A DNA stretch of 64,000 nucleotides from Candidatus Omnitrophota bacterium (GTDB taxonomy: Bacteria; Omnitrophota; Omnitrophia; Omnitrophales; Aquincolibacteriaceae). Made by a program: the position numbers and the translations under genes. Below, piece by piece: positions 3,464 through 64,000 of the stretch. Location: the NCBI GenBank assembly GCA_035352955.1, contig DAOPYQ010000001.1, forward strand, positions 101,536 through 165,535, in the 5' to 3' direction. The notes beneath the pieces are model-generated. The model saw only the letters and a list, made by a program, of their open reading frames with translations, made no database searches and had not been told where the DNA came from. Position 1 is the stretch's first letter, and the number at the start of each line of letters is the position of its first letter.

Positions 3464-3472
3464 AGGGTTTCG

Positions 3473-4822: not shown

Positions 4823-4823
4823 T

Positions 4824-13472: not shown

Positions 13473-13491
13473 GACCGGAGACCCGGTTTCA

Positions 13492-23900: not shown

Positions 23901-26900
23901 GACGAAGCGGCTGAAAGTATCCGTCAGATGTTTGCGCAACGTGAAGCCCGTCAGACGCGCGGGGAACAGCAGGACGCGCAACGCGCGACGCAGGGCGCGC
24001 AACGAGAAGCGGAAGGGAAGTTGTGGATTGAAACGGAAAAGCCGGGGGACGGAAAACGGATGACGGATGGAGTAAAGCCTGGTTTTTCGAAATCCGCCAT
24101 CCGTCATCCATTATCCTCCGCCGAAGGCGACGGTCGCGCTGAATTACGGGTCAATCCCGACGAATATCCCTGGTTCAAAAGTCTGGAGCCTCTTGAGAAA
24201 ATCGGAATCCGTGACCAGTTGAATGATCTCAGTGAAAAAGAGAGGAAAAACTTCCCCAAAAGTTTTGGAAGGCTCCGGCGGTTCCTGAACTCGAAGGGAT
24301 TTTCGGCACTCCGCAGCGGACGTGAGCGATGGGAGGCGATCACGGGCCTCCAGAAGTTCTGGACCCGGCTGGTTGACAATTTCGGAGATGATTATTCCCG
24401 CAGCGTTAGAGCGACGAGGTTCGGCCTGTTTTTCGAGGCTTATATGGCAAGTCCGTTCTTTATGGAAATGGAAGGTCCCGCGGAACGTTTGAAAGCCCTT
24501 GCGATCTTTCACGAGATCGATTTCGAGACAGTGAACCATCTGGACAGGTACGAAGGCGGCATCCTGGAGATTTTGAACAAGTCCGTACGCGCAGGGATCA
24601 ACACGGCGCCGGAAAAAGTCGAAGTCGTCGAGATCCTTCGGCGGAGCTTCCAGAATATTCACCAGGACAGCTACAAAGAAAACGTGGATTTAAGGGAGGT
24701 TTTGGCGATCTTTTACGAATTTCTGGATGTGCCGGCGTTTTCCTCGCTTGCGACTCCGGGAGAACGGCAGGCCGCTCTTTCCGTTCTGAAAAACGCTTAT
24801 CCTACGAAGTCCACGCGGTATTCCTCGAAAGAACATTTAAACACGATCCTGGTGACCCGCGCGGCCCTGGTTGCTTTTCTGAAATGGGACTCTTTCAGGA
24901 ATCTTTCGAATCCCCAGGCCCGTCGTTATGGGTTAGCGCTTTTCGGGCGTCTTCTTTTTCCGCCGGAGACCCTTAAACGGGGGTGGATCTGGATCCCCAA
25001 AGGTTTACTGGATACGCGGGCGGCGGTCGCTGAAATTGTCCGGGAGGCTTTCCTTCATCCCGGAAAAAGCAGCGAAGAGGTTCTTAATATTTTTCGTGAG
25101 GTGATGGAACGCATGGACCGGGAGCGGGGGCAGTTCCAGCTCAAGAAGATGGTGGTGGGGGCTGTTCGGGCAGTTCTTCAGGCGTGTGATCATATCCTGG
25201 CCCGGAAAACGCGGGGAGAGCCGCAGGACGCGCAACGCGCAACGGACAACGTACAACGAGAAGCGGAAGGGAAGTTGTGGCTTGAAACGGCAAAGCCGGA
25301 TGAGGGAGAACGGATGACGGATGGAGTAAAGCCTGGTTTTTCGACATCCGACATCCGGCATCCGCAATCCGTAAGCGAAGACGGCGGCCGCGCGGAATTG
25401 CGGGCGAAAGAGCTTATCTTTCTGCCGTCCCTGAGCGTCATTGAACGCAGATTGAAAAAGGATCCGGGGTATGCGACCGAAGCGAATTTCGAACCGTTCC
25501 GCAAGGTCCTGGCCGGGGAAGATGCGGCGTTTAACCGGTTGTTGAACGTTCTGAGATGGCTTCCCCAAAAGACGATCGACGCGGCGGAAGGCGTTTGGAG
25601 ACTTCTCATGAAAGGCGCGATCGCTTTTCTGGCCATTTCCTTGGCGGGCGGACAGATCATTGCCATCCTGCTGGGAAGTTTCGGGGACCCCGTCTTGTTT
25701 TTCTGGCTCAAGAGCATGGGGGTTGCCGGTTTGATAGCCGGGGGAGCAGCGGTTATGATCAGGATTGCCAACGTTTTGCGTGAGAGAGGGTTGCCTTCGA
25801 TCCGCAAAAACATTCACGAGGCCAGGACCGTCAAATCTTTCAAGGCGCTCCGGCTGTTCGCACGGCAGCATTCCGTTTTCCGGTCCGGAAAATATCTGGA
25901 TTATGCCGGAACGCATCTCCGCTCCAGAAGCTTTGTCGTCACAAAAGCGGCATTTGGATTTTTAGATCAGATCCACGGGTGGGGTTTTCCCCCGGCATGG
26001 TATCCGGAGCTTTTTGAGGCCCTGAAGCCGTTCTTTTCCAAAGAGTTTACGGTTGACCGGGGAGTTCTGGCCGTTCTGGATCAAGCGTCTTTCCGGAAGG
26101 ATAAGGCCGAGGCGATCGCATTTGTCCGCCAACAGCTGGAGATGATGGAAGAGCAAGAGCAGGCCAGAAAAGAAAGAGGAACGGTTCAGCCGGTGCCCGC
26201 ATCGCAACGGCGCGGTTCCGGGAACGTGGAAGGCTCCCTGTGGGAAGAAAAATCGTTCCGCGCGGAGGTGCGGGTTGTGTCACAAACTTTTGCGGATGTC
26301 GTGGCGAAGATCCGCCAAACGGGTACTTTTGGGATCAATGTGGGCCTGGGACAGCCGCGCGAATTGTTTTCTGGTCTCGCGAAACAGGCTCCCGGAGAAT
26401 TTAATGAGGCGAACCTGGGAGCGCTGATCGGGGAGATCCTCGACCATTCGGGAGCCGAAGCTGAAGCGTGGTGGACGATCCTGAAAGCCGCGGACCCTTA
26501 TTTCGCGTTGGCTGGCGCCAAGGATCCCGCTTTAAGCCCTTACAGTCCCGCGAATCTTCGCCCGGTCCTGGAACGCGCGATCACGCAGGATCCCCCCGGC
26601 AAATACGTTCTCAACCTTTTGAAACGGTTTTCCATAAGAAACCAGGCCGCCTTTGATGAAGAGAATCTGCGTCATTGCATCGATCTTTTTGATCTGGAAC
26701 GGCGAGAGTTCTTTTTCCGGGTGAAGCCGTTTTTCAGTCATCTGCTGGTCTCCGGCATCTTTTTCACCGAGACGCAGCTGGATCCTTTTCTGGATAAGGT
26801 CATTGAGTTCTTTCTGAGGAGAGAAAGGGAGGTGGATCTGAGCTCGTTCCACGGTTGGATCACGGCAGTCGCCGCGGGAGTGCCGGGCGTTGCCCTTCGG

Positions 26901-29900
26901 GCACTTAGCCTGCTCTTTGCCATTGAGGTCTTTCCGGATTTTAATGACATGAAAACATTCGCTCTGAATCTTTTCTCGATTCTTGAAAAGCGCTACGGGC
27001 CACTGGACCGGGAGGCTATGGTGGACGCGGCAGAGGATCTTTGGAACAGCATGTTCCCGGCACCGCGCGTGCGGAATTTCTGGACTACAAAAACGAAAAG
27101 CGAGTTTGAGGCATTTGACAGCCTTTTCCGGGACTTTGCGGCCTCGCTTGATGCGGCAAGGACGGCAGGAAGTGAGAAGGCTTATAAACAGGCTGTCACA
27201 CAATTCAAATTGCAGCTGCATCATTATGCGGGACAAAGGCAGGCCAGGGTTACACGGGGAGAGCCGCAGGACGCGCAACGCGCGGCACAGGGTACGCAAG
27301 GGGTAACGGAAGGGAAGTTGTGGGCGGAGAGGGCCGAAGACGGTTTGCGTTCGGAACTTCGCGTGACGCATCCTGACATTCGCGAAAGGATGCGTGGCTT
27401 GAGGCAGAAGATAGAAAACCAGGTCGGGGATACCGGAGCGTTCGGAGCTTATGTCCAACTGCTGGATTTGCCCCCTGCCGCCGCGAGGTCCCAAGTCATT
27501 GGCGATATCAGTAAAGAGCTCAAGAAACAAGCGCGAGCGATCGCGGACACGGTTACGGATCCGGACCCCAAAGTCCAGGAAACGAAACAGAAGACTTTGC
27601 TCGCGAATCTGACAGTGCTTGCGGTCCTTCAGACCATCGACCGTAACGCGAGAAAGGCGGCTTCGACGGAGCCTGCGGGCGACAAGTTCTTCGGCCTGTA
27701 TGAGCGGGAAAGTTTCGTCGAAACGGCGTTCTTCACGCACATGACGGTTTCGCTGAGCAGTTTGCTGAAGGACCTTGATCCCGACTATATCGAGGATGAA
27801 GAACTGCGGCTTTTAACTTTCAAGATCCAGACTTACTTCGGGCTGGAAGCGTTTTTTAAAAGTTCGCCGAAGGTCCATTTCCGTCCGTGGTTTAGCAAAT
27901 TCCTGCTCAATTACATTCTCCGTGAACGTCCCGAACTCGCGCAGGCCCTGTATTCTCTGAATCCGGATCAGAGCCTTGTGGGGCTTCTCGAAGACTGGTC
28001 CGTTGAATCCAAGCTCAAATTCCAGGAGTGTCCGGAGATTACGATCCTGCGGGACATCGTGAAGCGCTACCAGTTCACGTTCCGGGATTTTGTCAGCAAG
28101 AAGAGCGGCCAGCCCTTCGATGAGAACGAGGTCTCGGAACAGTACCAGGGCGACCTTGAAATGCTCATGGAAGACGAAACCGTGCGCGGGCTGATCCAAC
28201 GGGATCTCCGGGGGCTCCAGGATATCGTGACGATCATGCTGACGGAAGGCCGGATCGAAGCGGAAAAGGCCAAAAAAGAAAAGGGCGGCAAGGACGACGG
28301 GTACGGCGAAGTTCGGTACATCCTGGAACAGATCATCCCGAAGGCCCTGCCGAAGATCCGGGAGAGGCTGAATAACGCGGACCCTCTCGAGATCCTTGAT
28401 GCGATGGCGAGCATTGTGCAGGTGGCGAACGGGGAATTCTCCGCGTTGATGGGCAAGTTGCTTGGGGCGCACCCGCGGATCGGGGACAAGTATTCCCGTC
28501 TGATCGCGGGCAACGTCCAACGCCTCAAGCAGATCGGACTGATCCTTGTGGCGGTCGGCGAGACCGGATTTGACCAGATCCCGTTCGATAAACTGGTCGC
28601 ACGCTACAAGATCGTAAAAGGGAGCGACGCCGAAGGCCGGCTTCTCGAGATCATCGCGAACATCGCCCGTTCCGCGAAGGAAGGGACCGCCGGACTGATC
28701 GAAGAAACCTTCGATCTTTACAGCCAGGAGGCCGGCGAGACGTTGGACGACCTGAACAAACTGCTCCGCGCGTTCAATTATTTCGTCAGGATCGTCAATT
28801 TTCACTATGAATACGAAAAACTGGTCCTTGCCGGCGAGGTCGGCCAGATCAATAACGAAACTTATTTCGTGAGCTTGCGCGACCTCAAAAAGACCCTGCA
28901 GATCGTACGGCGCAACTTCAACGCAGGCATGGACATCAAGGAAGCTGCGGCCGATGCGGTGAAACGCCGCTATTACAACCGTCTTAGTCCCGAGGACCGC
29001 GACCGCGTGCGGGGCCTTATGATCTCTCACAGGATCATCCATCCCCACGACGAATTGAAGTTCAGTTATGAGGTCCAAGGATACGAGGTCGGCAGCCGCG
29101 AGATCGTGATCACGGAGAAACGGCCGCCGTATCAGATGCAAAAGAAGGACCGGGTGACGGGGCAGCTCTACATGGAAGAGATCCAGGTCGGGAAGCCTCG
29201 AGAGGTCATGCGTATTCAGTTTAAGGAACCGCTGGAACCCGGAGACGTCGATCCGGACATCATCTTCAACGAAACGACCTGCCGGAATCTGTCGGCGGTG
29301 CTTGAGGCGCTGGAGGTCAAAAACGGCGAAAAATTCAATCCCGTGCTGGAATTCGGGACCACGGCCGGCGGCAAAAGCACGATCGCCAAGCTCGCGGCGA
29401 AGGTCCTCAGGGTCGGTTACACCCGCATCCAGATCAACGAACGCACCGACGAGTTCGATCTGTTCGGGTCCTTTCAGCCGTTCGAGATCAACATGGAGCT
29501 GGGCGATGCGATGGAGCGGATCCGGGAAGCTCTCGATCGCGGGGAATACAACGCGCTTGAAGATGTCCTGAGCCGCATGTTGACGGGCGGAGAGGGGAAG
29601 TTCTGGGAACGGTTCTTCAGCGAAGAAGAACGCCGCGAGATCCTTGCGGGACAGGAGGGACTGGACCTTCACGAAGCCAAACGTCTGGCGATCCAGAAAC
29701 GTGTCCTCGCCCGCGTCGAAAATATCCTCGCGCAGGCGCGAGAACTTTTGCCGTTGGAACATGCGCCTGCCCAGGACCCGAAAGCGGCGGAACGGATCCA
29801 ACTCGTCAAGGCCATGGCGTATATGCTCAATCATGAAGTCGGGCTCCGTTACAAGAAAGGGCGTTTTCTCGAAGCTTACGAAAAAGGTGACCTGATCCTT

Positions 29901-32900
29901 CTTGACGAGGTTAACCTTGCGAACGAGGAAATGCTCGGCGTGCTCTACCAGCTTCTGACGATGGGGTATCTCCAGCACGGTGGCAAGGTCGTCGAACCGG
30001 CGTCCGGCCAGAAAGCCCGTATCCTGGCGACGGCGAACCCTTCAAGCTACGGCGGTCGCAACCGGATGAGCGAGGCGTTCATGAACCGGTTCGAGATCAT
30101 TTATATCGATTCGATGACCGATGAGGAAATGGCCGAGATCCTGGAAGGGACCGTTCATAAAGACCTGATCGCTTCCGGCCGGTATGCGGCGGCGGACTTC
30201 AAGAAACGGGAGGGAGAAACCCCTGCCGAGTGCCGGCAGAGGCTTGACCAGATCCTGCTGAAAGAGATCGGAGTGACACGTTACCATCTGACGCTTTTGG
30301 CCCGGGTCCAGGACAAGATCAACGGCGCGCTCCGCGGCGGGAAATTCATCGGGATGGGTGCCGACGCCGATTATGTTTTTACGATCCGCAATTATTTCAA
30401 TTTATACAAGGACCAGATGGCCCGTAAAAAGCAGGGGCAGACGCTTAGTCTCGAGACCTGGCTGCGCGAAGCCTTTATGGAATACGGGAACGTCCTGATG
30501 CGCACGAATACGTATCTCCTGAATCAGCCGGAACTTTTGAAGGAAGAAGCCTCTTACAAGACGCTTCGCAATATTTTCGGGCTCACGATCGGGGATCCGA
30601 TCCTCGACCTTCCGTCGCTTCAGCATCCGCGCGAAGGCCCTGCCGCGGCGGACGGTACCCCAACGGTGCGGTCCACCCTGCGGCCCGAAAATGCCCATGA
30701 AGCCTTTGATGAACTGGTCGCGAACTGGTTCCGCAAGATCGATTACGAATATGACCGGGCGACGCATACGCTCCGGATCGACGGGCTTACGATCACCGGC
30801 CGGACCCTCGAGGAACGGAAACTGATCGAAGAGCTTATCGAAACGGAGTCCACCAAATACAGCCAGATCGCGGTCCTGAAGGCACTGCTCCTGAACGAAC
30901 CGCTTCTGAACGTGGGCCAGTCCGGCGGAGGAAAGACCGAATCGATCGGGGATATTGTCCAGCGCCTCGGCCGCAAGTACGTCACGGTTTCCCTCGGAGA
31001 CGCGACGCTTGAAAGCCTGCTTGGGAACATGGAATGGAATCCGCGGGAAAAACGTTTTGTCTACGTTCCGGGGATCCTCGTCAAAGCGATGCAGGACGGA
31101 TCGGCGCTCGTGCTTGAGGAACTGAACATGGCGAAGTCCGGCGTGATCGAGATTCTGAACGAATATTTTGACGAAGGGACCTTCACCAATCCTTTTACGC
31201 TCGAGAAGATCAGGGTCCATTCTGATTTCCGGTTGTTCGCGACCATGAATCCTGTGCAGGGTATGACGGGGCAGAATGGCGGACGCGTGAGCCTTTCTCC
31301 GGCTCTCCGCAACCGTTTCCGCGAAGTATGGGTGCCGCACGAAAAAACGGATGCGGAAATGCGGGAGATCCTTCAGGGGCGTTTTGCTCAGAAGAATATC
31401 CAGGTCGGGGATGTTTCGATGAAGAAGATCCTCGCGTTCTTCCACGCGTATCAGGAAGCGTTCCGTTTCCGCGGCGAAGCGGCCTACTATACGAGCCCGC
31501 GCGACCTGACGCGTATCGTCCGGATCATGTCCTATCTCATCACCGTCTGCCATATGGATGAAGAAAAAGCCCTCTCCCGAGCGGTGCGGCGCGTGTACTT
31601 TGCCAAGATCGCGAAAGAGGAGGACCGGAACGATGTCCGCAAACTGATCGCCGAGGCAAAGATCCCGTCCGGCGAGATCCGGGCGCCTTCCTACCGGTTT
31701 TCCGAGGACAAACGTTTTCTTGAGGCCTACGATGGCCAGGAACTTGTCGCGCGTTTCGATGTGACCGCCCACCGGTCCCGCCTAGAAAAGATGATCGAGG
31801 ACGAGATCGGTGAAAACGATCCCGGCATTTCCGGAGAGGCGCTCCGCTCGCAAACGAAGTCCAAACTGGAACAGGCACTGAAAGAAGCGACGCTGGTTGA
31901 GAATGCGCACACGATGGAGAATCTGCTCGGGCTCATAGAGGCCGTTGCGATGGACGATCAAGATGTCCGGCAGGGAAAATTCAACCCGGTCCTTCTTCTT
32001 GGCGAAACCGCAGGAGGGAAGACCTCGCTTGTGAAATATCTTGCCGTGGCGATCCTCGGACAGGGGTACACCCGCATTCAGATCAACGAACGCACCGATG
32101 AGCTGGACCTTTTCGGTTCGTATGAACCGCGTGAAATGAAGATCGGAACGGACGATGCGGTCCGGATCGTCCAGAACGCCATCGAAGAAAAAGAGTGGGT
32201 CAAGCTCAAGAAAGCCCTGCAGATGTTGAGAAAGGGGTACGCCGGCGAGGATGAATTCGACCGGTTGCAGGATCCCGAGCGGATTTTCGAGCAGCTTGCG
32301 GCAGAGGAAACGGCCGCCCGTGAAGAGATCTTCCTGTATCTCCGGCAGGCCGTCTCGGATGACGCTGATCCCCAGAGTCGTGACGCGGCGATCCACCGGC
32401 TCAAGGTGATCGCGTATCTCGTGAAAAACGGGGCGATGAGCGTGGAAATGGAGTTCCGGGAAGGGCGGTTCCTTTCCGCCCTGAAACGCGGGGATTTTAT
32501 CGTGCTCGACGAGATCAATCTTGCGAGCGAAGAGTCGATCGCCGTCCTGTACCAGTTCCTCACGCTCGGTTTTGTGGAATATTACAACAAGGACGCCAAA
32601 GATGAGAACGGCAATCCCCACCCGCGCGTCGAGAAGATCTATCCGCCGGCGGGAATGAAACTGGCCGCGACCGCGAACCCGTCCGGTTACGGCGGCCGCA
32701 ACCGTCTCAGCGAAGCGCTCATGAACCGTTTCGAGATCCAGTACCTGCAGAACATGTCGCCGGAACAGATGAGCGAGATCATTATGGGAGAAAGCGCCCG
32801 CAAAAGCGTTTTCGCGAAAAATACGCGGTTGGCCGGCACGGTCCTGAAACTCGCCAAGCTTCAGCGGCAGATCAACTTGACCCTGGGAAGCGACGCTAAT

Positions 32901-50315: not shown

Positions 50316-50380
50316 GCCTCGGTTCATTTTTGTCAATTCCCTCACAGGGAAATCCAGTTTTCGGGTCATTTTCAGCGCCT

Positions 50381-50409
50381 ATTTATAGCAATATATAGCA
50401 TTAAATTCC
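50381..50409 (+). promoter_or_regulatory. AT-rich leader motif ATTTATAGCAATATATAGCATTAAATTCC upstream of giant gene 2, sharing TTTATAGCA(T) with the gene 1 leader
   Basis: The motif lies in the 167-bp AT-rich gap between the two giant genes. The same TATAGCATT core is found at 20791-20799, upstream of gene 1. Confidence 0.35.
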
Positions 50410-50482
50410 CCCGATTTGCTTTTTAAGGAAAATGGGTTATTTTTTATTAGTAAAATCATTTAAAAAGATTTAGAGGACAAGG

Positions 50483-56400: not shown

Positions 56401-59400
56401 AGTTCATGCCGGTTATGAAGTCGCGGGGCAGTATTTTCTTTCATTGCCGCCGTTCTTTTTGGATCCCGAAGGCCGGGTCTCCGCGACGCTTAACAAAGGA
56501 GTCCCTCGAAAAAAACAGAATTACTTCGATCCTGCGACCGGTCTTCCTATTTTCCCTAAAAAAGAATATTTGTTTTACACCTTTCACGTGGAGAATCCGG
56601 GATTCTGGTCATTTTTGGGTGATCCGGAAAGAGGCCGTGAGCTGGATCTCCGGTCGCTGAGGGCCGTGAGCGCGCCGCTTGCGGAACTCGCGCAGGCCAC
56701 CGGCCCGCAGTTTGTGAACGTGCTGGGTCTTCTGGGCTATATCGTTCATCTCGGGCTTTTTAGTGAAGAAGATTTTTCCGTAATCCAGGAATGGGCCCGG
56801 CAGAGGAAAGACCCGAAAAATCTGTATGATGTTCTCCAGAAGACTTTGGGAACGGTCCTGACCCATTATCCGGATGCGCAATGGAACGGGACGCTTCTTC
56901 GGGATATTTTCCTTTTGGATGATGAAAAACAGATGGAAAAACGGCTGGAACAATACGCCCAACAGGTCATGGTCCGCCACGAACGCGGCGAAGAACAGCC
57001 CCTGGCCGGTCCTTCTCAACCTTCCGCGGTAAAGGAATCAGAAGAAGGGAAGCTGTGGTTTGAAACTCCAACGACGGATGACGGAGGACGGATGACGGAG
57101 GACGGACGGCTAAAGCCTGGTTTTTCGACATCCGAAATCCTTCATCCTTCTTCCAAAGATGACGGACGGCTAAAGACAAAGGGTTTTTCGTCATCCGCCA
57201 TCCGCCATCCGTTATCCTCCGCCAAAGGCGGCGAACGTGCGGAAAAGCGTGAAGGGGAATTGTCGGCAGAACAACAGGCGTGGGTGGATTCGCTGTCACT
57301 CCGGGATCCGGAAGAACGGGCGCTACTGGTGTCGCTGCTTGGGCGGCTCGGGCGGTTTTCGGGTCTCAGTGTTGAACCCTATGAATATGAAGAGAATCCT
57401 CTTGTTAAACGTCCGCGGGAAATTCAGGAACTGCCGGTCCAAACGTCACTGATGGAATTGTTTGACCCGAAAGTGTATCCGAATCCGTTCACAGACCGTG
57501 AAAAGATCATAGCGCTCCGGATCTTTCATGCCGTTCTGGACAATCTGGACGCCATTTTCCCTTATTTTGAAGAGGCGCGCCGGTCGTTTTTTACTTACTT
57601 GCAGTTTTTGTACGTCAATTCTGCGGTCCGCGGGATCCTCGGTCTTAAGGTTTTTACCAAGCTCAAAACTCCGGAGGAGAGAACGCTGGCCCTGGAGACC
57701 GTTCTGGAGATCCCGGAAAATGTCCGGAAAAATTTCGGAGACGCCGTTAATCACTGGGCTTCCTGGATCATCGGGAGCGCTTTTGACATGATCAAAGACC
57801 TTCCGGACCGGATCGCCCTGCTCGAGGTCGCCCGCCGGACCGTTCCCGCGGCGAAGGAAATGACCGCGCAAAAATTCCGGGACATTGCCGAAGCGACCGT
57901 ATCGATCGATCTTCTCCGCATCCTCCGGGAGTTTTCGTCCCGGGCGGCTGATACCGCGGAGGAAAGCGTCAAGGATCATTTTGCGGAACAGGCGATGGAG
58001 AAGATCAGCCGCGTGGCACAGCGGATCCGGTCCGAGGAAGTTTCGGGCGAGGAACTCCGGGAGTGGCTCGACGGATTACCTTTTAAGAGCCCTGAAGAGC
58101 GGGAGGCATTTGCGGAGATGGTTGCAAAGTCCAATCGCGAGAAGAATGTCCTGACCTACGAATTTGCGACGGGGGAGAATTCCGCAGGCAATACCGAATA
58201 TGAGGACCGTACCGAAGCGATCCTTCCGTATCTTGAAAAACTCTGGCTTTTAGAACCCTATACCTCGCTTCAGGCTCCGCAGGAGCGGGTTCTTGCCTTA
58301 AAACTTTTTGGCGCAATTTTATTCGGGAATTCTGCGCTTTTTCTGGAGGTCATTCCCCATCTCAACAAGATCCTGGGTCCGGAAGTTCTTGGCCCGAGCA
58401 ACGATCCGGCGGAGAGGAGGACTATTCTGGAAATGGCCCGGCAGATCGCGGAACGCGCTACAGGCTCCAGCGAGGACGTTCTCGAAGAAAAATTATCCAA
58501 CTTCGGTCAGTTGCTCGCTCTCAAAGAGGTCCGCGGTCTTGGGATCGCGCAGAGGAGGACGGTCTTTGAAATCATCGGGGAGATCCTCCGTCACGCTGAT
58601 TCTTGGAGGACTTATCAGGGAAGTAAAATGGCCCTCATTACCTTTTGGGAGCTCCTCAGTTCTGACGGATTCAAAAGGCTTCCGGATCCGCTAAAAAAGA
58701 AATCTCTTGAGATCGCGAAGGGATTGCCGGCTTACGCGAAGGGGAAGAGTGATGATGGTATCCAGGCGTTTAGCCAGCTGATCGGTTCGGCAGGAGTTGG
58801 CGGCATTACGGATCCCGTCGAACAGGAAGAATATCTGGACGCGTTCGACAAAACCGCCCGTGTTTTTGCACTCTATGACGAGCCCTTCTCGAGCGGCTCC
58901 GACGCGCCTGACATTTTGTCGGCTTTCGGAAAGTTTTTTGAAAAAGGAAGCATGGATTCTTTCCGGGATCCCGCGGAGCGGAGGGAGATCTTCCGGCTCC
59001 TTGGAGATATCCCGCAACACACGAAAGAAAGAACCGGAGCGGCCCTGGATGTTCTTGGCGGATTGCTTCGGAGCAAGGGGTTCAGAAGTCTTCCGGACGC
59101 GGCCGGGCGGAAAAAGTTCCTGGATAAATTTACGGAGATCGCTTCTGCGCCTTTATTTCGATGGTTTTTCAAGCTCAGCCGCTTGATCGAAAGGCCTGGC
59201 TTTTCGGGGGTTTTTGGCTCTGACAAACAGAGGCGGGTTCTGGAGACCGTTAACGGGATGCCGGAACTTTTGGGTGACAATACCCCTGAGGCGATATCGG
59301 CTCTCGCATCGCTGCTCGATGAGCATGAGTTCCGTGGCGTCGATTTCACAGAAGAGGCGGAGGAGTATCTCACGAAATTTGAGGAGATTCTCAAAGAGCT

Positions 59401-62400
59401 CCCGCAGTATGCCGGAAAGAATGTGAGCCTAGCGTTGAGAGTCCTCGAGGAATTTTTCAAGGAAGGCCTTCCCTGGATCCCGGATCCCGGGCTGCGAAGG
59501 ACAGCGTTGCAGATCGTGAGGTTTTCGCTCAGGCGCTTTACGGAAGGGTCGCATTCTCATCCGGCCCTCGGCTTTTCCAGGGTGATGAAAGATGTCGGGC
59601 GTTCCGTGTACTTGAGTGGCGTGTTGAAGGATTTTTCCCTTCAGCTTGAAGCGGCACCCGACGACGAAACAAGGGTCGCCGAGGCGGAACAGGTTTGCCG
59701 GAACATTGTTTTGATGGCGCCGCAGGTGAGAGCGCGTGAAGTGCGGGGCGAATCGCATCCCGCGCAACGCGCAGTAAACGGCACGCAACGGGAAGTGGAA
59801 GGGAAGTTGTGGTTTGAAACGGCAAAGACGGAAGACGGAAGACGGAAGACGGATGGGGTAAAGCCTGGTTTTTCGACATCCGAAATCCGTCCTCCGCAAT
59901 CCGTAAGCGACGGCGGTGAACGGGCGGAGATCCGCACGGGGCAACAGGAGCGGAAGTACGGTTGGTTCTGGAAAGCCGGACTCTCGGAGAAGGTCGCCGC
60001 GCTTTATTGGGGGTTTCGTTTGTTCGATTATTTCCGCTTGGGTGACCCGCTGGTGCGCGAGGCGTTGTGGGATTTTCTCGGTTCGGAAGGGTTCGGGCAT
60101 CTGTCCCGTGCGGAACGGAATGTGATCTGGCGGTTGTTGGACCTGGTTTTTTGCAGCAACAGCGGGTTGAAGTGGGAAGGTTACCAGCGGGCGCCGGAGT
60201 ATTTCAAGGAACTGGACGCGCTATTGAAATCTCGCGCGTTTGCCGAGATGTCGTTCCCCTGGCGGATGGAATTGTTGACCGCCCTTAAGGCATGGCTCCA
60301 TAAAGGATTCGATCCGAACATTGGAAGGTCCATGGCTGCCGGTTGGGAAGTTCCGCAGATGACCGTTCTTCTCAACACTGAAGTGCTTGGAAGGGTCAGT
60401 CCGGAAACGCGGGAGAAGTTCTGGGAATATCTTTTTCCGAAAGAGACTGTGGGACAGGCGATCCGTCCCGTGCATGATAGCTCGTTACTGAGGTCGTTCT
60501 TGGAAAGCAACGGGGTCAAAGCCTTGACGGTTGAAGAACTCGAAACGATGTTCGGAATGTTCCGGGTTGAAGATGTCAAAATACCCGGCAGCAAGGAACA
60601 AGAACTCCGCCTAAGTATTTCCGTCAGCCCGTCTGTTTTAATCTTTGCCCGGAAGCTTTATGCTTCCCCGCAATGGAAAGCGATGACCGATCCCTCCGAG
60701 AGGTTGGCGATGATCCGGCTCGTGAACGCGGATCCTTTCAACTTGTCCATGGCGGCTCCGGTTGGCGCGACTTTTCGTTCCATGACCATACGCATGCGGC
60801 GGTCACTGATGGATTGGAAAGCTCCCGCGTTGTTCAAAAGAGCGTTTGCGGTGTTGCGCGATGCGGCCCAGGAGCTTGACGCGTCGAAAGACGCCGGATC
60901 TTTCGAGTCGATCCTCGACCGGTCCCGGCAAAAGATCAAACAGATCCTTGAACAGGTCAATGCCCGTCTGGATCGCGGCGAGGCGCAGTCCGATGCCGGA
61001 TCCAGTCCTCAGACCTCGAAGCCGGACAGCGAGGGGAAGTTGTGGTTTGGAACGGAAAACCCGGAAGACGGTAGACGGATGACGGATGGAGTAAAACCTG
61101 GTTTTTCGACATCCGACATCCGCCATCCATTATCCTCCGCCGAAGGCGGCGAACGCGCCGAAGTGCGGGAAAAACAGAGCGAAGAGAAAGCGATCTTTTT
61201 ACCGGCGCTCGATTTGCTCGAGCAACGGCTCAGGCGGGATCCCGGTTATGCTACGGAAGCGAACTTTAAGCCGTTCCGGAAGGTTTTGACCGGGAAAGAT
61301 GCGGCCTTTACTTGGTTTTCAAACATCGTGATTCTTGCTGGGGTTTTATGCTGGGGCTTAGGCTTTTTAGGGTTTTCAAGTGTTGGGGCAGGACTTTTTG
61401 GATTTTTCTTTCTTTCCCGTTCTGAGGATGTTACCGGTTTCAAGATCGCTTGTCTTGTCGCGGGAGGATTTTCGGCATTTGTTTTAGGTATGTCGATTGC
61501 CGAATCCAGCGTGCTGGACACCGGGAAGATGAAGCTCCGGAGAACGAAGGCGGCTTTTCGGGCTCTTGCCATGTTTAAAAATTTCAACGCGGATTTTGAT
61601 TTCGAAACCTACTTACCTTATGTCTACCGGGGGATTTCTTCGCCGTTGTCCGAGGAAGCGTTTGAAACATTGAAGGAACTCTTCGGGTGGGAGCTTCCGG
61701 AGGGCGTTCGCCGGCTGTTTATTTCCGGGGAGCATCGCGAGCGATTTTTCTTTGATGCCCCCGAAGAAATTCTTTCTATTCTTGGCGAAGCTTCTCGGCG
61801 CTATCGTGTGAATGGAAACGAAGCGGAGTGTTGTTCCTTGATCCGGAACGGGATCGAACTGATCGGAGCGCAAGCGATGGCCCGCAAAGCTCGCGGGGAA
61901 CTTAACCCGGTTCCGGGTTCGCGGCCCAAGACTCTTGAGGATCAGGAAGGGAAGTTGTGGTTTGAAACGGCAAAACCGGAGGACGGAAAACGGATGACGG
62001 ATGGAGTAAAGCCTGGTTTTTCGACATCCGACATCCGTCCTCCGAAATCCGTAAGCGAAGGCGGCGGGCGTGCCGAGTTCCGCAGTGAATTGCGGGAGAA
62101 GGCAGGGATGTCCGGTCTGGAGCATGTGGCCCGCGGTGATTACGCCCAACGTTTCTCCGATCTTCTCGACCGGGCTGAGCAAAAAATTTCGCCCCGGGAA
62201 TTCGGGAAGACGGTTGATGTGTTCCGTAGGTTGCTGTCCCGGGAAAGATTTGAGGAGTTTGAAAAACACCGTGAGATAGCGCCTCTTTTTGTGGTTTTGG
62301 AGAATGTCATTCAATATTCATGGCTGAACGCTCCGGAAGCTTTCGAGGCGCTTGCGGCGCTTCTGGATTCGGACGGGTTCAGGAAACTTTCAGCGGGGGA

Positions 62401-64000
62401 ACGGAAACGATTGTTTGAGATTTTTCAGGTCACTCCGAAAAATGCGAGTTTTGCGGCTTATCGCGCGTTTGAGGCACTTTCCGAGCTGATCAATACCCGG
62501 TCGTTGCCGTCTTCCAGATCTCCCGAGCTTCGGCGTCCGGTGTGGGACCTTCTTCAAAAGCTGTCGGCAGAAAATAATCCGCCGGTCCATGCGGCTTACC
62601 GCGCGGCCGGAATCCTGGTGCGGCATTTGTCCGCGTCCGGGTCCGCTTACCGCACGTACGATACGGCCCCTGAACACTGGAAAAATGTGATGGAAACGTT
62701 TGGGGAAACCCTCGAAGCGATTCGCAAGCATGACGGGATCAATGCCATGCAGTCTTACGAAGCGCTCACTTCGCTGATCGCGTCTCCGGGATTTTCGGGA
62801 TTACTTCTGGAGGAGCGGCAGGTGTTTTTGCGACTGCTTCGGTTGATCCCGGAAGGCAGCACTTCGCGGACGGCGAACGTGTTCTCGAAGCTCCGGCAAT
62901 TGATCGAATCGGAAGATTTCACGACGGCCTGGCCGTTGCGGCGGAGTCAGCGTTTGATGTTGTTAAGTAATCTGACAGGGGACTTGTCCCGCTTTTTTGC
63001 GTATCAAGGGATCTTTCTCCCGGCCATATTGAGAGAAGAAGAAAACGCGGCTTTCCAGGTCGCCCGGATACTCTTTCTGGTGCTTTCGTCTTCAGAGAGG
63101 TTCTATCGAGTGTTCAACCATATTGCCAGACAACCTGATTTCAGGATCGCGCTTCTATTTAACGGGATCGGGGATATCCTTGCAAGAGTGGTCGGCAGCG
63201 AGCATTTTAAAAACAACCAAGACCTTGAACAAATGATGCGGGCCTTGGAAGATCCCCAGGCGTACAAGAGGGTTCTGGATTGTTTCGACGAAATAGCCCG
63301 GAGATTTCATGCCAAGAAAAAGGAAGATCGCAAAACAAAGCTGCTGGAAGCGTTCAGTCAAGGTCTTAGGGAATTACTTCCTCAGATCGAGGCCCGCAAA
63401 ACACGCGGGGAAGCGCAGACGGTTTCCGGTTTCCGGCCGCCGGTTTCAGGGGAAAAGGAAGGGAAGTTGTGGTTTGAAACTCCAACGACGGATGACGGAG
63501 GTCGGATGGCGGAGGACGGAAAACGGATGACGGATGGCGTAAAGCCCGGTTTTTCGCCATCCGACATCCGTCATCCATTATCCTCCGCCGACGGCGGCGA
63601 ACGTGCGGAGATCCGCGCGGGGCAACAGGACCGGAAGTACGGTTGGTTCTGGAAAGCCGGGCTCCCGGAGAAGGTCGCCGCGCTTTATTGGGTATTCCGT
63701 TTGTTTAATTATTTCCGTTCGTCCAAATATTTCCGCTTGGACGATTCGCCGGTCCGCGAGACGTTATGGGATTTTCTCGGTTCGGAAGGGTTCGGGCATC
63801 TGTCTCGTGCGGAACGGGATGTGATCTGGCGGTTGTTGGACCTGGTTTTTTGCTTCAAAAGCGGGTTGGAGTGGGAAGATTACCAACGGGCGTCCAAGTA
63901 TTTAAGGGAACTGGACGCGCTGCTGAAGTCCCGCGCGGTTACCGATATGCCGTCCCCCTGGCGGATGGAATTGTTGGTCGCTTTAAAAGCGTTGTTCCAC
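50483..64000 (+). CDS. Giant gene 2, 3'-truncated by the window (at least 4506 aa): paralogous signal anchor and N-domain, beta-propeller blocks, helical DPxER repeats, an internal transmembrane module, 7 linker modules, and no AAA+ domain within the window
   Basis: The ATG at 50483 is preceded by an in-frame TAG at 50471 and by a ribosome-binding site AGGACAAGG. Frame 2 stays open to the window end, all repeat modules translate in frame 2, and the ORF track shows no + strand ORF in frame 2 in this region. The N-terminus is MPSNLSQTNITVYRRFIAALTVCFFIFSDLLFFPSQGFAGT, a signal-like sequence. Confidence 0.8.
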   Translation, partial: MPSNLSQTNITVYRRFIAALTVCFFIFSDLLFFPSQGFAGTQDMRTNKTSISANISFPAQVEKVEIPSVLGSIEERFRGNGSKAVVLIQDAHAIPTAQENIRKLIAYFQEQYGVRLVAAEGAATRLDPQLFRSFPDKERLAKALEPYAGEGHLTGVVEAALLNSVAGDFWGIEDAGLYEEGLGFYRRAMTVSPSLAIEIQRTELRNSGLKAAIYPPELFAVEKALDAFYENKLGFAEALKTLVVVRPPARGTALALIAEEIVRSPASPVKDPGIGSETGRLAERMNDALKQRLVSSSSEMKEWNQKYQSFRTGALEDGDYAAYLKDVARTQQIPITVSATLDAKISRHEKFRDIEGGLLVREFESYVREVSRELLKKSSDADKALRLYESTNRLRLLKRLARLELGWEEWEILKKDIGQVSAGLLQTSELHRNFYKNAEKRDGAFLKNLARLDREGPTLLVAGGFHTRGLANGLKAANIPYVVIRPAMGAVPEKSVYQEQMSGNVPWKDYFEERDGRVDVRDAFTRAMSDKLLQPAGPKDFASSFTLSPSSVAKAWRDQIIRDLAAQGRIERAGEYTRSLDRLAGRRVPKIENFIRALQALETSGGLNRDNILGLLKGAHILPAAAGNAILGNTTLPVSLLTPFSLPTTTSEVKSGGIPTQTSGVEPGRRAGDEDFQKSHSTELVERPTSDAPIRSESRIEATDAEWEKTLAFLKSAVMGDWNREIEGFTEYSLSRDGRWFFAQYDSGRSGKLIDLSTGEEMRLADGRTFSEVYGTSVRLEFSKNSRYVLDRHSGMVIDLMTREEKTTDEGVPLSRVMDLSKIVLRDFEADYLEGTVRGKKGVIVFDMGTGKELVSAAGKPLSELTGPDVKAVHISPDKRWCFVGYQDLGLKLIDLKTGRLGLSGKGSPGKGGDPMGTFSSDSRLFVLQGKKAKVIDLRTGKPRMTDSGQKLSDVIGKTIGFAQYPAFGSRLIQMVCYAEETSVFRLFDTKTGREPMIESGKALARLKGAIIEKVSESPDGRYFCVTYRRASKGLKFLLIDAETGKEKLLRDGRRFSQVAGNAGKWVFPENVGLLWSVERGQMFDIETGEKYEVAPKLMGSGAWAIPRNITGASLIGPAYGILFSVDVLEAEKDRILRAMDPGAFQSLALLSRMGMIRDARELKALTALFQGVSEKMNNVWPVAVAKLWEQWTGNEKQEQELRGMLEEARSLFESKTTESEKFEVQQDLGLSLDQWAGQIASRKSRGEQQRAQRVANGAQRGEEGKLWLETPTTDDGGRMTDGVKPGFSTSAIRHPLSSAKGGGRSELREGDKFQEDGGLPAAIRTAQDKIAQLLPETFEVDNGGDYERETPDYTIYPRQEALANFSAMMRTAEFTALTDDEKKVFLKALSGQFYSWSGLDFRAQLEVVKQLLSSADFQALTDPAERELILKWLADKRLWFPGKGSFLTGFLQTRAFSLSRDQNERLLNLEVFILLHTEGFRFFGDSWKTFLDAAEGYQGMGREQRLRVLKFARALLLREQRSRKILEMDDFGGRSGHRSRLEALLKSGMESVLSRKDEAHLIAVAEKVYEQIVLLKKQVVARKTRGEAQPVPGPRSPVFGNKEGKLWLETAKPEDGKRMTDEVKPGFSTFDIRHPLSSADGDGRAERREDKDPAQAEFRKFVEFFGFWNVMRGQEGSQWIVTENGRYALIHQNRRSIIRPNEGYFLIRDLVAGTERMFEPAPDTLPLADEIRLSEDGAWIFATAFGETQDRGRLFRVGEPVPYKMKFGEGLRDGFFSPDSRYLLAEYKDHHFRLSATDRTPAPKLQLPERIQRWKFSADSRWLSVVSGGRLFVYDLVEGGEHFRSSFLTRFREPSFSADGQFFFGLTSSATAVRISVAGDSPAVRLFSREGICGGGFIGEGNRIWTQGRIKQDSTSLVTVWSDLGKEDRNFTLDRGLLNHGFSPDERWFVASYPAESGTTARIVPTGLGPSGVHAGYEVAGQYFLSLPPFFLDPEGRVSATLNKGVPRKKQNYFDPATGLPIFPKKEYLFYTFHVENPGFWSFLGDPERGRELDLRSLRAVSAPLAELAQATGPQFVNVLGLLGYIVHLGLFSEEDFSVIQEWARQRKDPKNLYDVLQKTLGTVLTHYPDAQWNGTLLRDIFLLDDEKQMEKRLEQYAQQVMVRHERGEEQPLAGPSQPSAVKESEEGKLWFETPTTDDGGRMTEDGRLKPGFSTSEILHPSSKDDGRLKTKGFSSSAIRHPLSSAKGGERAEKREGELSAEQQAWVDSLSLRDPEERALLVSLLGRLGRFSGLSVEPYEYEENPLVKRPREIQELPVQTSLMELFDPKVYPNPFTDREKIIALRIFHAVLDNLDAIFPYFEEARRSFFTYLQFLYVNSAVRGILGLKVFTKLKTPEERTLALETVLEIPENVRKNFGDAVNHWASWIIGSAFDMIKDLPDRIALLEVARRTVPAAKEMTAQKFRDIAEATVSIDLLRILREFSSRAADTAEESVKDHFAEQAMEKISRVAQRIRSEEVSGEELREWLDGLPFKSPEEREAFAEMVAKSNREKNVLTYEFATGENSAGNTEYEDRTEAILPYLEKLWLLEPYTSLQAPQERVLALKLFGAILFGNSALFLEVIPHLNKILGPEVLGPSNDPAERRTILEMARQIAERATGSSEDVLEEKLSNFGQLLALKEVRGLGIAQRRTVFEIIGEILRHADSWRTYQGSKMALITFWELLSSDGFKRLPDPLKKKSLEIAKGLPAYAKGKSDDGIQAFSQLIGSAGVGGITDPVEQEEYLDAFDKTARVFALYDEPFSSGSDAPDILSAFGKFFEKGSMDSFRDPAERREIFRLLGDIPQHTKERTGAALDVLGGLLRSKGFRSLPDAAGRKKFLDKFTEIASAPLFRWFFKLSRLIERPGFSGVFGSDKQRRVLETVNGMPELLGDNTPEAISALASLLDEHEFRGVDFTEEAEEYLTKFEEILKELPQYAGKNVSLALRVLEEFFKEGLPWIPDPGLRRTALQIVRFSLRRFTEGSHSHPALGFSRVMKDVGRSVYLSGVLKDFSLQLEAAPDDETRVAEAEQVCRNIVLMAPQVRAREVRGESHPAQRAVNGTQREVEGKLWFETAKTEDGRRKTDGVKPGFSTSEIRPPQSVSDGGERAEIRTGQQERKYGWFWKAGLSEKVAALYWGFRLFDYFRLGDPLVREALWDFLGSEGFGHLSRAERNVIWRLLDLVFCSNSGLKWEGYQRAPEYFKELDALLKSRAFAEMSFPWRMELLTALKAWLHKGFDPNIGRSMAAGWEVPQMTVLLNTEVLGRVSPETREKFWEYLFPKETVGQAIRPVHDSSLLRSFLESNGVKALTVEELETMFGMFRVEDVKIPGSKEQELRLSISVSPSVLIFARKLYASPQWKAMTDPSERLAMIRLVNADPFNLSMAAPVGATFRSMTIRMRRSLMDWKAPALFKRAFAVLRDAAQELDASKDAGSFESILDRSRQKIKQILEQVNARLDRGEAQSDAGSSPQTSKPDSEGKLWFGTENPEDGRRMTDGVKPGFSTSDIRHPLSSAEGGERAEVREKQSEEKAIFLPALDLLEQRLRRDPGYATEANFKPFRKVLTGKDAAFTWFSNIVILAGVLCWGLGFLGFSSVGAGLFGFFFLSRSEDVTGFKIACLVAGGFSAFVLGMSIAESSVLDTGKMKLRRTKAAFRALAMFKNFNADFDFETYLPYVYRGISSPLSEEAFETLKELFGWELPEGVRRLFISGEHRERFFFDAPEEILSILGEASRRYRVNGNEAECCSLIRNGIELIGAQAMARKARGELNPVPGSRPKTLEDQEGKLWFETAKPEDGKRMTDGVKPGFSTSDIRPPKSVSEGGGRAEFRSELREKAGMSGLEHVARGDYAQRFSDLLDRAEQKISPREFGKTVDVFRRLLSRERFEEFEKHREIAPLFVVLENVIQYSWLNAPEAFEALAALLDSDGFRKLSAGERKRLFEIFQVTPKNASFAAYRAFEALSELINTRSLPSSRSPELRRPVWDLLQKLSAENNPPVHAAYRAAGILVRHLSASGSAYRTYDTAPEHWKNVMETFGETLEAIRKHDGINAMQSYEALTSLIASPGFSGLLLEERQVFLRLLRLIPEGSTSRTANVFSKLRQLIESEDFTTAWPLRRSQRLMLLSNLTGDLSRFFAYQGIFLPAILREEENAAFQVARILFLVLSSSERFYRVFNHIARQPDFRIALLFNGIGDILARVVGSEHFKNNQDLEQMMRALEDPQAYKRVLDCFDEIARRFHAKKKEDRKTKLLEAFSQGLRELLPQIEARKTRGEAQTVSGFRPPVSGEKEGKLWFETPTTDDGGRMAEDGKRMTDGVKPGFSPSDIRHPLSSADGGERAEIRAGQQDRKYGWFWKAGLPEKVAALYWVFRLFNYFRSSKYFRLDDSPVRETLWDFLGSEGFGHLSRAERDVIWRLLDLVFCFKSGLEWEDYQRASKYLRELDALLKSRAVTDMPSPWRMELLVALKALFH
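50690..52410 (+). other. N-terminal conserved domain of giant protein 2 (paralog of 21100..22860)
   Basis: It contains AVVLIQDAHAIPTAQENIRKLIAYF, LLVAGGFHTRGLANGLKAANIPYVVIRP, WKDYFEERDGRVDV and AWRDQIIRDLAAQGRIE...AAAGNAILGNTTLP. Confidence 0.6.
52560..53900 (+). other. Beta-propeller-like repeat block in giant protein 2
   Basis: Units of about 45 aa recur with the pattern [IV]DL.TG.E (LIDLSTGEEMRL, VIDLMTREEKT, VFDMGTGKELV, LIDLKTGRLGL, VIDLRTGKPRM, LFDTKTGREPM, LIDAETGKEKLL). Confidence 0.45.
54216..54408 (+). repeat. Linker module copy 12 (gene 2)
   Basis: Reads SRGEQQRAQRVANGAQRGEEGKLWLETPTTDDGGRMTDGVKPGFSTSAIRHPLSSAKGGGRSELR. Confidence 0.7.
55231..55428 (+). repeat. Linker module copy 13 (gene 2) with a perfect 13-bp inverted repeat
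   Basis: CGGATGACGGATG at 55337-55349 and CATCCGTCATCCG at 55378-55390 flank a 28-nt loop. The translation is ..KRMTDEVKPGFSTFDIRHPLSS... Confidence 0.75.
55440..56600 (+). other. PD40/WD40-like beta-propeller block in giant protein 2
   Basis: Units include FSPDSRYLLAEY, FSADSRWLSVVSGGRLFVYDLVEGGE, FSADGQFFFGLTS and FSPDERWFVASY. Confidence 0.5.
56985..57252 (+). repeat. Linker module copy 14 (gene 2, composite)
   Basis: Reads HERGEEQPLAGPSQ..EGKLWFETPTTDDGGRMTEDGRLKPGFSTSEILHPSSKDDGRLKTKGFSSSAIRHPLSSAKGGERAEKR. Confidence 0.7.
57280..59700 (+). repeat. Array of about 55-aa alpha-helical DPxER-type repeats in giant protein 2
   Basis: Units include FTDREKIIALRIF, LKTPEERTLALETV, SLQAPQERVLALKLF, SNDPAERRTILEMA, ITDPVEQEEYLDAF, FRDPAERREIFRLL, LPDAAGRKKFLDKF, FGSDKQRRVLETV and IPDPGLRRTALQIV. 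Confidence 0.6.
59740..59932 (+). repeat. Linker module copy 15 (gene 2)
   Basis: Reads REVRGESHPAQRAVNGTQREVEGKLWFETAKTEDGRRKTDGVKPGFSTSEIRPPQSVSDGGERAEIR. Confidence 0.7.
60966..61170 (+). repeat. Linker module copy 16 (gene 2)
   Basis: Reads DRGEAQSDAGSSPQTSKPDSEGKLWFGTENPEDGRRMTDGVKPGFSTSDIRHPLSSAEGGERAEVR. Confidence 0.7.
61300..61500 (+). other. Internal predicted transmembrane segments of giant protein 2, downstream of a DPGYATEANF motif at 61238..61267
   Basis: The hydrophobic segments are FSNIVILAGVLCWGLGFLGFSSVGAGLFGFFFLS and FKIACLVAGGFSAFVLGMSIAESSVL. Confidence 0.55.
61888..62082 (+). repeat. Linker module copy 17 (gene 2)
   Basis: Reads ARGELNPVPGSRPKTLEDQEGKLWFETAKPEDGKRMTDGVKPGFSTSDIRPPKSVSEGGGRAEFR. 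Confidence 0.7.
63393..63615 (+). repeat. Linker module copy 18 (gene 2, composite)
   Basis: Reads KTRGEAQTVSGFRPPVSGEKEGKLWFETPTTDDGGRMAEDGKRMTDGVKPGFSPSDIRHPLSSADGGERAEIR. Confidence 0.7.

Follow-up and report, generated by a model that had tools for sequence, protein, structure and literature searches.

In-frame palindromic DNA repeats in the giant-gene linkers of an Omnitrophota bacterium

Two tandem giant genes in a 64,000-nucleotide (nt) stretch of Candidatus Omnitrophota DNA (GenBank assembly GCA_035352955.1, contig DAOPYQ010000001.1, positions 101,536 to 165,535; here called the window) are interrupted by recurrent linker modules whose copies are nearly identical in DNA. We consider it probable, albeit with moderate confidence, that these modules are palindromic repeats that lie in frame in a conserved giant-gene linker, resemble repetitive extragenic palindromic (REP) sequences and Rickettsia palindromic elements (RPEs), and have been homogenized by gene conversion. 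The finding is real and not an artifact: the linkers have a two-layer anatomy, their inserts form hairpins, the repeats are dispersed to other contexts and other genomes, and the copies evolve in concert. A preliminary description of the window had offered either an RPE-like element or a linker homogenized by conversion, and the evidence favors a combination of both rather than either alone. To our knowledge, in-frame palindromic repeats are known mainly from Rickettsia.

The first layer of this anatomy is an old interdomain linker frame, namely, an amphipathic helix ending in [A/S]R-x-x-RGE, followed by G-[K/E]-L-W and then by R-[A/S]-E-x-R. This frame is held by selection on the protein and is common to giant proteins of other Omnitrophota. 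The second layer consists of small palindromic DNA repeats located in frame in two slots, one from RGE to LW (slot A) and one from LW to RAExR (slot B). The main family, F1 (CGGATGA/TCATCCG arms), and a second family, F3 (GCGCAAC arms), are both members of dispersed repeat families, and short-tract gene conversion or template switching would keep the linker copies of one genome alike.

A protein profile of the module recovered the same 18 copies that had first been counted, 11 in gene 1 and 7 in gene 2, in addition to which there is a degenerate 19th linker at ~52433-52621. The modules range from 111 to 324 bp, and all copies lie on the + strand in one frame; nhmmer found none in window positions 1-20900. 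An inverted repeat had been ascribed to every module, which holds for 15 of the 18 linkers and fails for three short, empty ones. F1 cores are duplicated in three linkers. The two genes and their linkers are as follows.

Giant gene 1: 20904..50315, + strand, 9803 amino acids (aa), 11 linkers
Giant gene 2: ~50474/50483..64000, + strand, >4500 aa, continuing past the window end, 7 linkers plus one degenerate linker
Linker 1: 23946..24149, + strand, GCGCAAC heptamer array (DAQRATQGAQRE) in slot A and F1 hairpin in slot B
Linker 2: 25200..25403, + strand, QR type in slot A and F1 hairpin in slot B
Linker 3: 26163..26273, + strand, empty and not homogenized, ARKERG...EGSLWEEKSFRAEVR, with codons GAA GGC TCC CTG TGG
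Linker 4: 27243..27362, + strand, empty, EGKLW plus AERAEDGLRSELR without a hairpin
Linker 5: 40191..40514, + strand, F1 hairpin (GGAGGACGGA/TCCGTCCTCC variant), F3 hairpin (RNAQRTTKNGDSTLTVAR) and a small third hairpin
Linker 6: 41805..41918, + strand, empty, EGKLWNQTAERRSEVR
Linker 7: 43422..43715, + strand, F1 hairpin plus a 60-nt F3 hairpin between CGCGCGGAG and CGTGCCGAG
Linker 8: 45483..45692, + strand, the stablest F1 hairpin (-52.7 kcal/mol, z = -6.7)
Linker 9: 46395..46691, + strand, F1 core in tandem duplicate
Linker 10: 47265..47588, + strand, F1 hairpin with an extended 5' arm, plus F3 hairpin
Linker 11: 49248..49466, + strand, F1 hairpin; the final linker of gene 1 and positional orthologue of the last linker of P0001 (see below)
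Linker 12: 54206..54409, + strand, F1 hairpin (z = -6.4)
Linker 13: 55226..55429, + strand, CCGGTCC x 3.9 (PVPGPRSPV) in slot A; F1 with perfect 13-nt arms at 55337-55390
Linker 14: 56972..57250, + strand, F1 core in tandem duplicate
Linker 15: 59732..59935, + strand, F1 hairpin; from EGKLW on, it shares an 80%-identical DNA tract with 63450-63999
Linker 16: 60962..61168, + strand, F1 hairpin
Linker 17: 61880..62083, + strand, F1 hairpin; 98.3% identical to linker 7 of gene 1 over 117 nt
Linker 18: 63392..63616, + strand, F1 hairpin with seven heptamers in the 5' arm

The degenerate linker (gene 2 aa 654-716) follows the N-terminal domain and has neither the LW motif nor a hairpin. Its end, IRSESR and then IEATDAEW, forms the junction that is also seen in RSEARIKATDAQW of P0001, a giant protein from another Omnitrophota contig.

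Linker copies were much closer to one another in DNA than their flanking domains were, as the preliminary description had reported: copies share 70 to 98% DNA identity (98.3% between 43516-43632 and 61944-62060), whereas the flanks align as protein only, at 23 to 40% identity. The pair that it had listed with four mismatches stands with a 19-nt offset (40359-40459 versus 43590-43690). Two old duplicates with 28.7% identity, aa 765-1782 of gene 1 and aa 2808-3831 of gene 2, carry two modules each in corresponding places; the linkers are therefore old despite the young appearance of their DNA.

A codon-by-codon profile of the module separated the anchors from the insert. The anchor motifs [A/S]R-x-x-RGE and R-[A/S]-E-x-R have invariant amino acids, encoded by three or four synonymous codons each in proportions typical of these genes, and G-[K/E]-LW is likewise an amino-acid-invariant motif of the frame. 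Protein-level selection has held these old sequences. The insert, in contrast, which starts at EGKLW and stops just short of RAExR, uses one codon at nearly every column, with a single codon per column from EGKLW through SSAEGG, and that codon is often a rare one: TTG in 16 of 17 cases versus 19% usage in the giant genes (P = 4e-11), GTA in 10 of 10 versus 6%, and GGT in 14 of 14 versus 16% (P = 1e-8 to 1e-13 for the rare-codon excess). Codon bias was rejected as the cause, given that the codons in use are the minor ones. The pooled proportion of synonymous differences (pS) was 0.26 for the insert versus 0.70 to 0.79, i.e., saturated, in four flank comparisons; the ratio of nonsynonymous to synonymous divergence (dN/dS) of the insert was 0.64. 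Short-tract conversion or template switching would explain why near-identical codons lie beside saturated flanks. Because the anchors vary synonymously while the insert does not, the DNA-level unit is ~130 nt long and excludes the "entry" and "exit" motifs: ARQTRGE and RAE[LI]R, which had been taken for parts of the DNA-conserved unit, turn out to be protein motifs with free synonymous codons.

The invariance of RGE, LW, and R-[A/S]-E-x-R despite saturated synonymous sites, together with their presence in P0001, indicates that the frame is under selection, and it would fit a module conserved as a cleavage or recognition site at which a protease would split the megaprotein into its modules. Identical synonymous codons and a palindrome are, however, beyond what selection on a peptide can explain; the hairpin-encoded peptide has the dN/dS given above and is replaceable by unrelated families, and no result points to any protease. 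We therefore regard a processing signal as a highly improbable explanation of the module; proteolytic processing would concern the protein frame, not the palindrome. An AlphaFold (AF2) model from a 17-sequence alignment (mean predicted local distance difference test score [pLDDT], 61; predicted template modeling score [pTM], 0.15) contained near-zero secondary structure, with one three-residue helical turn, which is consistent with a disordered linker. We infer that the repeats are tolerated because of this disorder.

The F1 insert is a 75- to 100-nt hairpin whose arms are tandem heptamers (CGGATGA/TCATCCG) read in frame. Its 5' arm comprises (A)CGGATG / CGGAGGN units x 3-7, its 3' arm comprises complementary CATCCG(N) units, and its loop is GTAAAGCCTGGTTTTTCG. 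Three heptamers make 21 nt, or seven codons; the in-frame arms encode RMTDG and DIRHP, as first described, and pair codon with codon. The inverted repeat at 55337-55390 is exact, with perfect 13-nt arms and a 28-nt loop. Eleven cores folded at -29 to -53 kcal/mol and were more stable than dinucleotide-shuffled controls (z = -2.8 to -6.7), and positions 128-206 of the module model matched their own reverse strand (E = 1e-9 to 1e-16). Period-7 arrays detected by Tandem Repeats Finder (TRF) were almost confined to the modules. Slot A, from RGE to EGKLW, also holds heptamer arrays, either GCGCAAC (DAQRATQGAQR) or CCGGTCC (PVPGPRSPV), and the optional extension of the long forms is a second hairpin with GCGCAAC-type arms (GCGCAACG...CGTTGCGC), which was seen in three copies. 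The flanks of the 60-nt F3 insert at 43649-43708, CGCGCGGAG and CGTGCCGAG, are identical at 7 of 9 positions and may represent a duplication or belong to the insert itself.

When the cores were compared with synonymous recodings instead of shuffles, z was just -0.1 to -3.2; much of the hairpin stability is encoded by the peptide sequence itself. RNAalifold found 1 compensatory pair among 25 in the 11 cores, with a covariation term of +0.37 and almost all pairs invariant, so a selected RNA structure, one of the functions first suggested, gained no covariation support there. Because the F1 pairs hardly vary, covariation is uninformative for or against such a structure. Two other roles were considered and rejected. 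Internal translation starts (GGAGG located 4 to 10 nt 5' of the in-frame RMTDG ATG) do not fit, since 4 of 15 copies lack the ATG and its distance from GGAGG varies irregularly; nor does an intrinsic terminator, since the T-run sits in the loop rather than 3' of the stem.

Relatives of the module came from an exhaustive profile search of 1.84 billion protein representatives, which gave five matches (P0001 to P0005); P0002 and P0004 appear to be unrelated, low-complexity or tandem-repeat matches. Word-indexed protein searches with the module alignment, gene 1 aa 765-1782, and the F1 peptide alignment returned no matches, negatives that reflect the method rather than absence because the exhaustive search did find relatives. 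The exact DNA pattern of loop plus 3' arm had 0 matches in genome_contigs, in a scan that also missed Ga0116171_10000061 itself, a 103-kb Joint Genome Institute (JGI) metagenome contig that carries DNA identical to the window. The lone match in metagenome_contigs was a CCATCCG run beside hisI, which we attribute to chance.

P0001 (7743 aa, 18 matching stretches) is the product of the second of two tandem giant genes on an Omnitrophota contig, L084, and its N-terminal domain is 54% identical to that of gene 1. L084 has ~26 linkers with the frame AR-x-x-RG[ED] ... GELW ... R[SR]E-x-R, and the slot after GELW is occupied by at least five unrelated families, each a hairpin with heptamer arms. F1 reads TQDDGRRMADGAKPAFTPSALLHPIS there, with one mismatch per heptamer in its stems; F3 reads GNGQRTTKEKTLTVDRR, with arms GGGCAAC x 3; F4 has arms GTACGGR. 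The frame is kept and the hairpin absent in one empty linker (GELWTEKPARSETR). This linker and the three empty ones of the window, which also keep the frame without a hairpin, indicate that the insert is discrete, as do the three linkers with duplicated cores.

F1 copies were more similar within genomes than between them (79% identity within the window, with a maximum of 99%, and 92% within L084, versus 67% between the two), and their loop and arm variants are genome-specific. Gene 1 is collinear with P0001 over two stretches (gene 1 aa 7500-8681 and P0001 aa 4072-5184, 28.6% identity; gene 1 aa 9440-9803 and P0001 aa 7379-7743, 38% identity). Given that the four positionally orthologous linkers in these stretches contain F1 in both genomes, F1 occupancy is old and the within-genome similarity is secondary. 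The comparison of sequences also suggests that the cargo of a linker can be replaced: the first linker after the N-terminal domain, judged equivalent by position and following sequence, contains F1 in the window and F2 in P0001.

The copies are mosaic, with most pairs of sub-blocks showing all four combinations (four-gamete violations). The longest DNA repeat of the region, 59790-60300 versus 63450-63999 (80% identity over 550 nt), begins precisely at EGKLW and extends into the next domain to the window end; downstream of the linker, its pS is 0.24. Either the segment was duplicated recently or a long tract was converted. The strain-level contigs L084 and L085, which come from different samples (3300077324 and 3300077325), differ at just five bases in 43,232 nt, all of them at 21354-21374, within 21 nt of one linker insert. 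The changes shift this copy toward the sequence of other linkers, and both alleles are locally palindromic (GGGGCCCC versus GGCGCCGCGGCGCC); a perfect donor was not found within the 43 kb examined. Greater similarity within than between genomes, mosaicism, and clustered strain differences were thus all found, and this evidence points to gene conversion acting among linker copies.

F1 also lies outside linkers. On the Logan contig that encodes P0005 (L083), it occurs twice within the conserved N-terminal domain, at sites without an insert in gene 1; a further copy lies between rsfS and argS and another at the 3' end of miaA, both in the opposite orientation. On the contig that carries P0003 (L086), F1 occurs in the N-terminal domain of P0003, again at a site without an insert in gene 1, and at the 3' end of a gene for an M48 peptidase, and F3 lies in frame within a UvrD helicase gene, where it reads ATRNAQRVTENGIEKSL. 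In P0003 and P0005, F1 sits in two distinct N-terminal-domain loops. The intergenic and gene-end F1 copies of these two contigs match linker F1 in arms, loop, and length (nhmmer E = 1e-9 to 1e-14) and have no linker frame around them. Only 4 of the ~35 copies seen lie between genes or at gene ends, and most are translated within giant genes. The preliminary description had raised the possibility of copies elsewhere in the genome, which was not borne out for F1 in 29.5 kb of the source genome outside the giant genes but was for another family: a heptamer-armed hairpin (CGGTCTT/CGGTCCT...GGACCGG; 13425..13490, + strand) spans the stop codon of mfd and is the sole such element seen in the window outside the giant genes. 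It encodes the C-terminal tail of the product (...GPRSSVLDPATGA, then stop), and its heptamer resembles the slot A CCGGTCC arrays of several linkers.

Two further observations concern these contigs. At L083 16653-16735, the gene caller ran argS 22 codons (MEEGGGRKTELHPPSVIHHPYF) through the intergenic F1 copy; because a GGAGG-rich arm ahead of an ATG looks like a ribosome-binding site, F1 elements will create false annotated N termini. Between L086 7303-8277 and L087 1-1207, a neighboring 1382-aa gene, which has no Pfam match and has internal repeats that are 82 to 96% identical, differs in its repeat arrangement, while the next 35 kb are identical. We set this difference aside as evidence on the hairpins, as it sits only at the edge of the repeat rearrangement.

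The outside copies bear on a purely local origin, in which the palindromes arose in a low-complexity linker through heptamer slippage and fold-back template switching and spread by gene conversion or segment duplication only, with nothing mobile and with similar sequences elsewhere being independent. The strong evidence for gene conversion, the uniform orientation and frame, the lack of F1 in the 29.5 kb outside the giant genes, and the slippage-like variation in heptamer copy number would all fit such an origin. The intergenic and gene-end copies of L083 and L086, however, match linker copies without a linker frame, and some are reversed; F3 lies within the UvrD gene, and F1 lies in different N-terminal-domain loops of P0003 and P0005. 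The independent origin of the same ~80 nt is very unlikely, and conversion requires homologous flanks, which are absent at the outside sites. We consequently consider a local origin rather unlikely.

Several observations nevertheless weigh against REP/RPE-like repeats that spread into the linkers. Orientation and frame are the same in all 15 copies, yet three of the six frames are open, and for the latter reason filtering by frame was rejected as the cause of the uniformity. Occupancy is near full, with 15 of 18 linkers filled here and ~25 of 26 in L084. Random insertion would not give such a pattern, which needs conversion-driven spread, site preference, or host selection; conversion-driven spread explains both the uniformity and the occupancy. 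F1 is also recognizable (67% in DNA) between genomes whose flanking domains are 23 to 38% identical in protein, and neutral filler would not stay recognizable; some constraint is therefore needed, either on the element's own propagation or from the host. No transposase or mobilizing enzyme was seen in ~190 kb, where the genes called on the window and on contigs L083 to L088 include none for a REP-associated tyrosine transposase (RAYT), and no insertion event was caught directly. Since the 29.5 kb of the source genome outside the giant genes contain no F1 copy, the case for mobility comes from other genomes; L084 and L086 are from one sample and may represent one organism, which makes the number of independent genomes 3 or 4.

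The need for a constraint is why we give some weight to a host-selected structure, in which the cell needs a stable mRNA or DNA hairpin at every domain junction of a giant gene and the repeat families are interchangeable. Such hairpins might pause ribosomes for domain folding, serve as RNase III, processing, or protection sites in a transcript of 30 kb or more, or act as recombination joints. Near-universal occupancy, uniform orientation, strong stems, and the conservation of F1 between genomes with divergent flanks are all in keeping with this idea, as are the at least five unrelated L084 families that are all hairpins in the slot after GELW and the apparently orthologous linker whose cargo differs (F1 here, F2 in P0001) while the slot is still filled. 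Against it, compensatory change is all but absent within F1, with the 25 pairs nearly all invariant; stability comes largely from the peptide sequence; both genomes have empty linkers; every heptamer of the F1 stems in L084 contains a mismatch; and the elements also occur between genes and in ordinary genes, where there is no domain junction. Host selection of the hairpin is thus a minority possibility in our judgment. We give slightly more credence, still well short of even, to the idea that the hairpin cassettes are a required part of how giant genes are built or expressed in Omnitrophota, with an exchangeable heptamer stem-loop at each junction that would time translation or mRNA processing or act as an in-frame recombination joint.

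The favored reading, in-frame repeats homogenized by conversion, invites comparison with known systems. RPEs (Ogata et al. 2000, via PMC10969869 and PMC3733652) comprise several palindromic families, with many copies in frame in genes and others intergenic, and the host protein survives the addition of the conserved peptide that the in-frame copies encode (PMC10969869, PMC3733652). The elements described here are likewise many-copy palindromic repeats (15 hairpins in the window) with in-frame copies in unrelated genes as well as intergenic ones, a feature observed in L083 and L086 rather than within the source genome, where the other-family hairpin at the mfd stop codon is the exception. They differ in having no sequence relation to RPEs and in coming from a different phylum (Omnitrophota, not Rickettsiales), so that the likeness is in behavior only; in being 75 to 100 nt long with tandem-heptamer arms, compared with ~100 to 150 bp for RPEs; and in being concentrated, all in the same orientation, in one conserved linker slot of the paralogous giant genes, where conversion has homogenized them. 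REPs and bacterial interspersed mosaic elements (BIMEs) associated with RAYT transposases fall into GTAG- and CGTC-tagged superfamilies of 20- to 40-bp units (PMC3733652, PMC8266576). These form genome-specific, dispersed families that often lie just 3' of genes, with some inside genes, repair genes among them, and they have been reported from phyla of the Planctomycetes-Verrucomicrobia-Chlamydiae (PVC) group (PMC3733652, PMC8266576). Our elements resemble them as imperfect dispersed palindromes, some at gene 3' ends or inside genes. Unlike REPs, they are 75 to 100 nt long, mostly translated rather than mostly extragenic, and free of a GTAG tag; CGTC/GACG occurs inside the F1 arms of the window but is missing in F3, in F4, and in the 3' arms of the F1 copies on L083 and L084. 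Since they lack the terminal tag and the size of REPs and any sequence relation to RPEs, we class them as working like these elements, not as members of either group.

Compared with MITEs (miniature transposable elements with inverted repeats), the whole element here is one hairpin. In heterocystous cyanobacteria, short tandemly repeated repetitive (STRR) sequences built from heptanucleotides are tandem 7-nt units that occur as several families per genome in intergenic direct arrays. The 7-nt tandem unit and the plurality of families are shared with our elements, which, unlike STRRs, are in-frame inverted pairs forming hairpins in genes. Repeats in large surface and adhesin genes evolve in concert via gene conversion, and the within-genome likeness, mosaic variants, and clustered strain substitutions seen here are similar; the homogenized part, however, is a ~130-nt linker insert, whereas the domains themselves are saturated.

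Giant genes of Omnitrophota are known (West-Roberts et al. 2023, bioRxiv 10.1101/2023.11.21.568195; bioRxiv 10.64898/2026.06.07.730766), and those of the window match the described proteins in phylum (by enolase), in size (~10,000 aa), and in having many domains, including AAA_5, and a membrane anchor. Term searches of these two preprints brought up nothing on linkers, on palindromes, or on gene conversion. The gene 1 product has a membrane anchor at its N terminus, then seven AAA_5 modules of the dynein/midasin type, as well as a region with a weak VWA match and a WD40-like region. The AAA_5 modules lie at window 29300-36700 (aa ~2800-5230) with a midasin-type lid, and the weak VWA match lies at ~38600-38900; together they make up a midasin/MoxR-like ATPase ring within a 9803-aa membrane-anchored bacterial protein. 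The N-terminal 650 aa of gene 2 are 40% identical to gene 1.

Both giant genes lie downstream of eno on the + strand, after 20.2 kb of ordinary chromosomal genes (secY, rpoA, an aminotransferase gene, mfd, surA, pdxA, ksgA, ispB, rsmI, and eno). The enolase is 70 to 87% identical to those of Candidatus Omnitrophota metagenome-assembled genomes (MAGs). The nearest such MAG (L002) has no giant gene downstream of enolase, and the linker module was found in none of the 80 enolase loci checked for synteny. The mfd product (window 11541-13472) is just 643 aa long, covers positions 277-822 of the 907-position Mfd model, and is without the usual N-terminal region. The GC skew is positive across window 1-64000, with a steadily climbing cumulative skew, and every identified gene of the window is on the + strand, which fits a leading-strand segment. 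Many long antisense open reading frames (up to 763 aa) overlie the giant genes on the minus strand (window 23238-62314) and are probably a by-product of codon composition. Neither Rfam, searched at gathering scores, nor a scan for tRNAs gave a match in the window.

In practical terms, repeats of this kind will break assemblies and mislead gene callers, as with the argS gene that was extended through one copy. The three conserved protein motifs (RGE, LW, and RAExR), now separated from the DNA repeat, are testable as processing or docking sites. RPE-like behavior appears here in an unrelated, uncultured phylum, with a distinctive architecture built from heptamers and a strong preference for one linker slot of giant genes. 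We infer that the main consequence of the repeats is to supply identical in-frame DNA tracts, which would help modules to recombine and be shuffled inside a giant gene and from one to another. Linkers with near-identical in-frame DNA bear on how giant genes may grow and reshuffle, and a role for the repeats in the modular evolution of Omnitrophota giant genes is plausible. If the cassettes were indeed required, they would constitute a genetic "connector" system behind the growth of the largest known bacterial genes, by which domains could be swapped, duplicated, or deleted without loss of frame.

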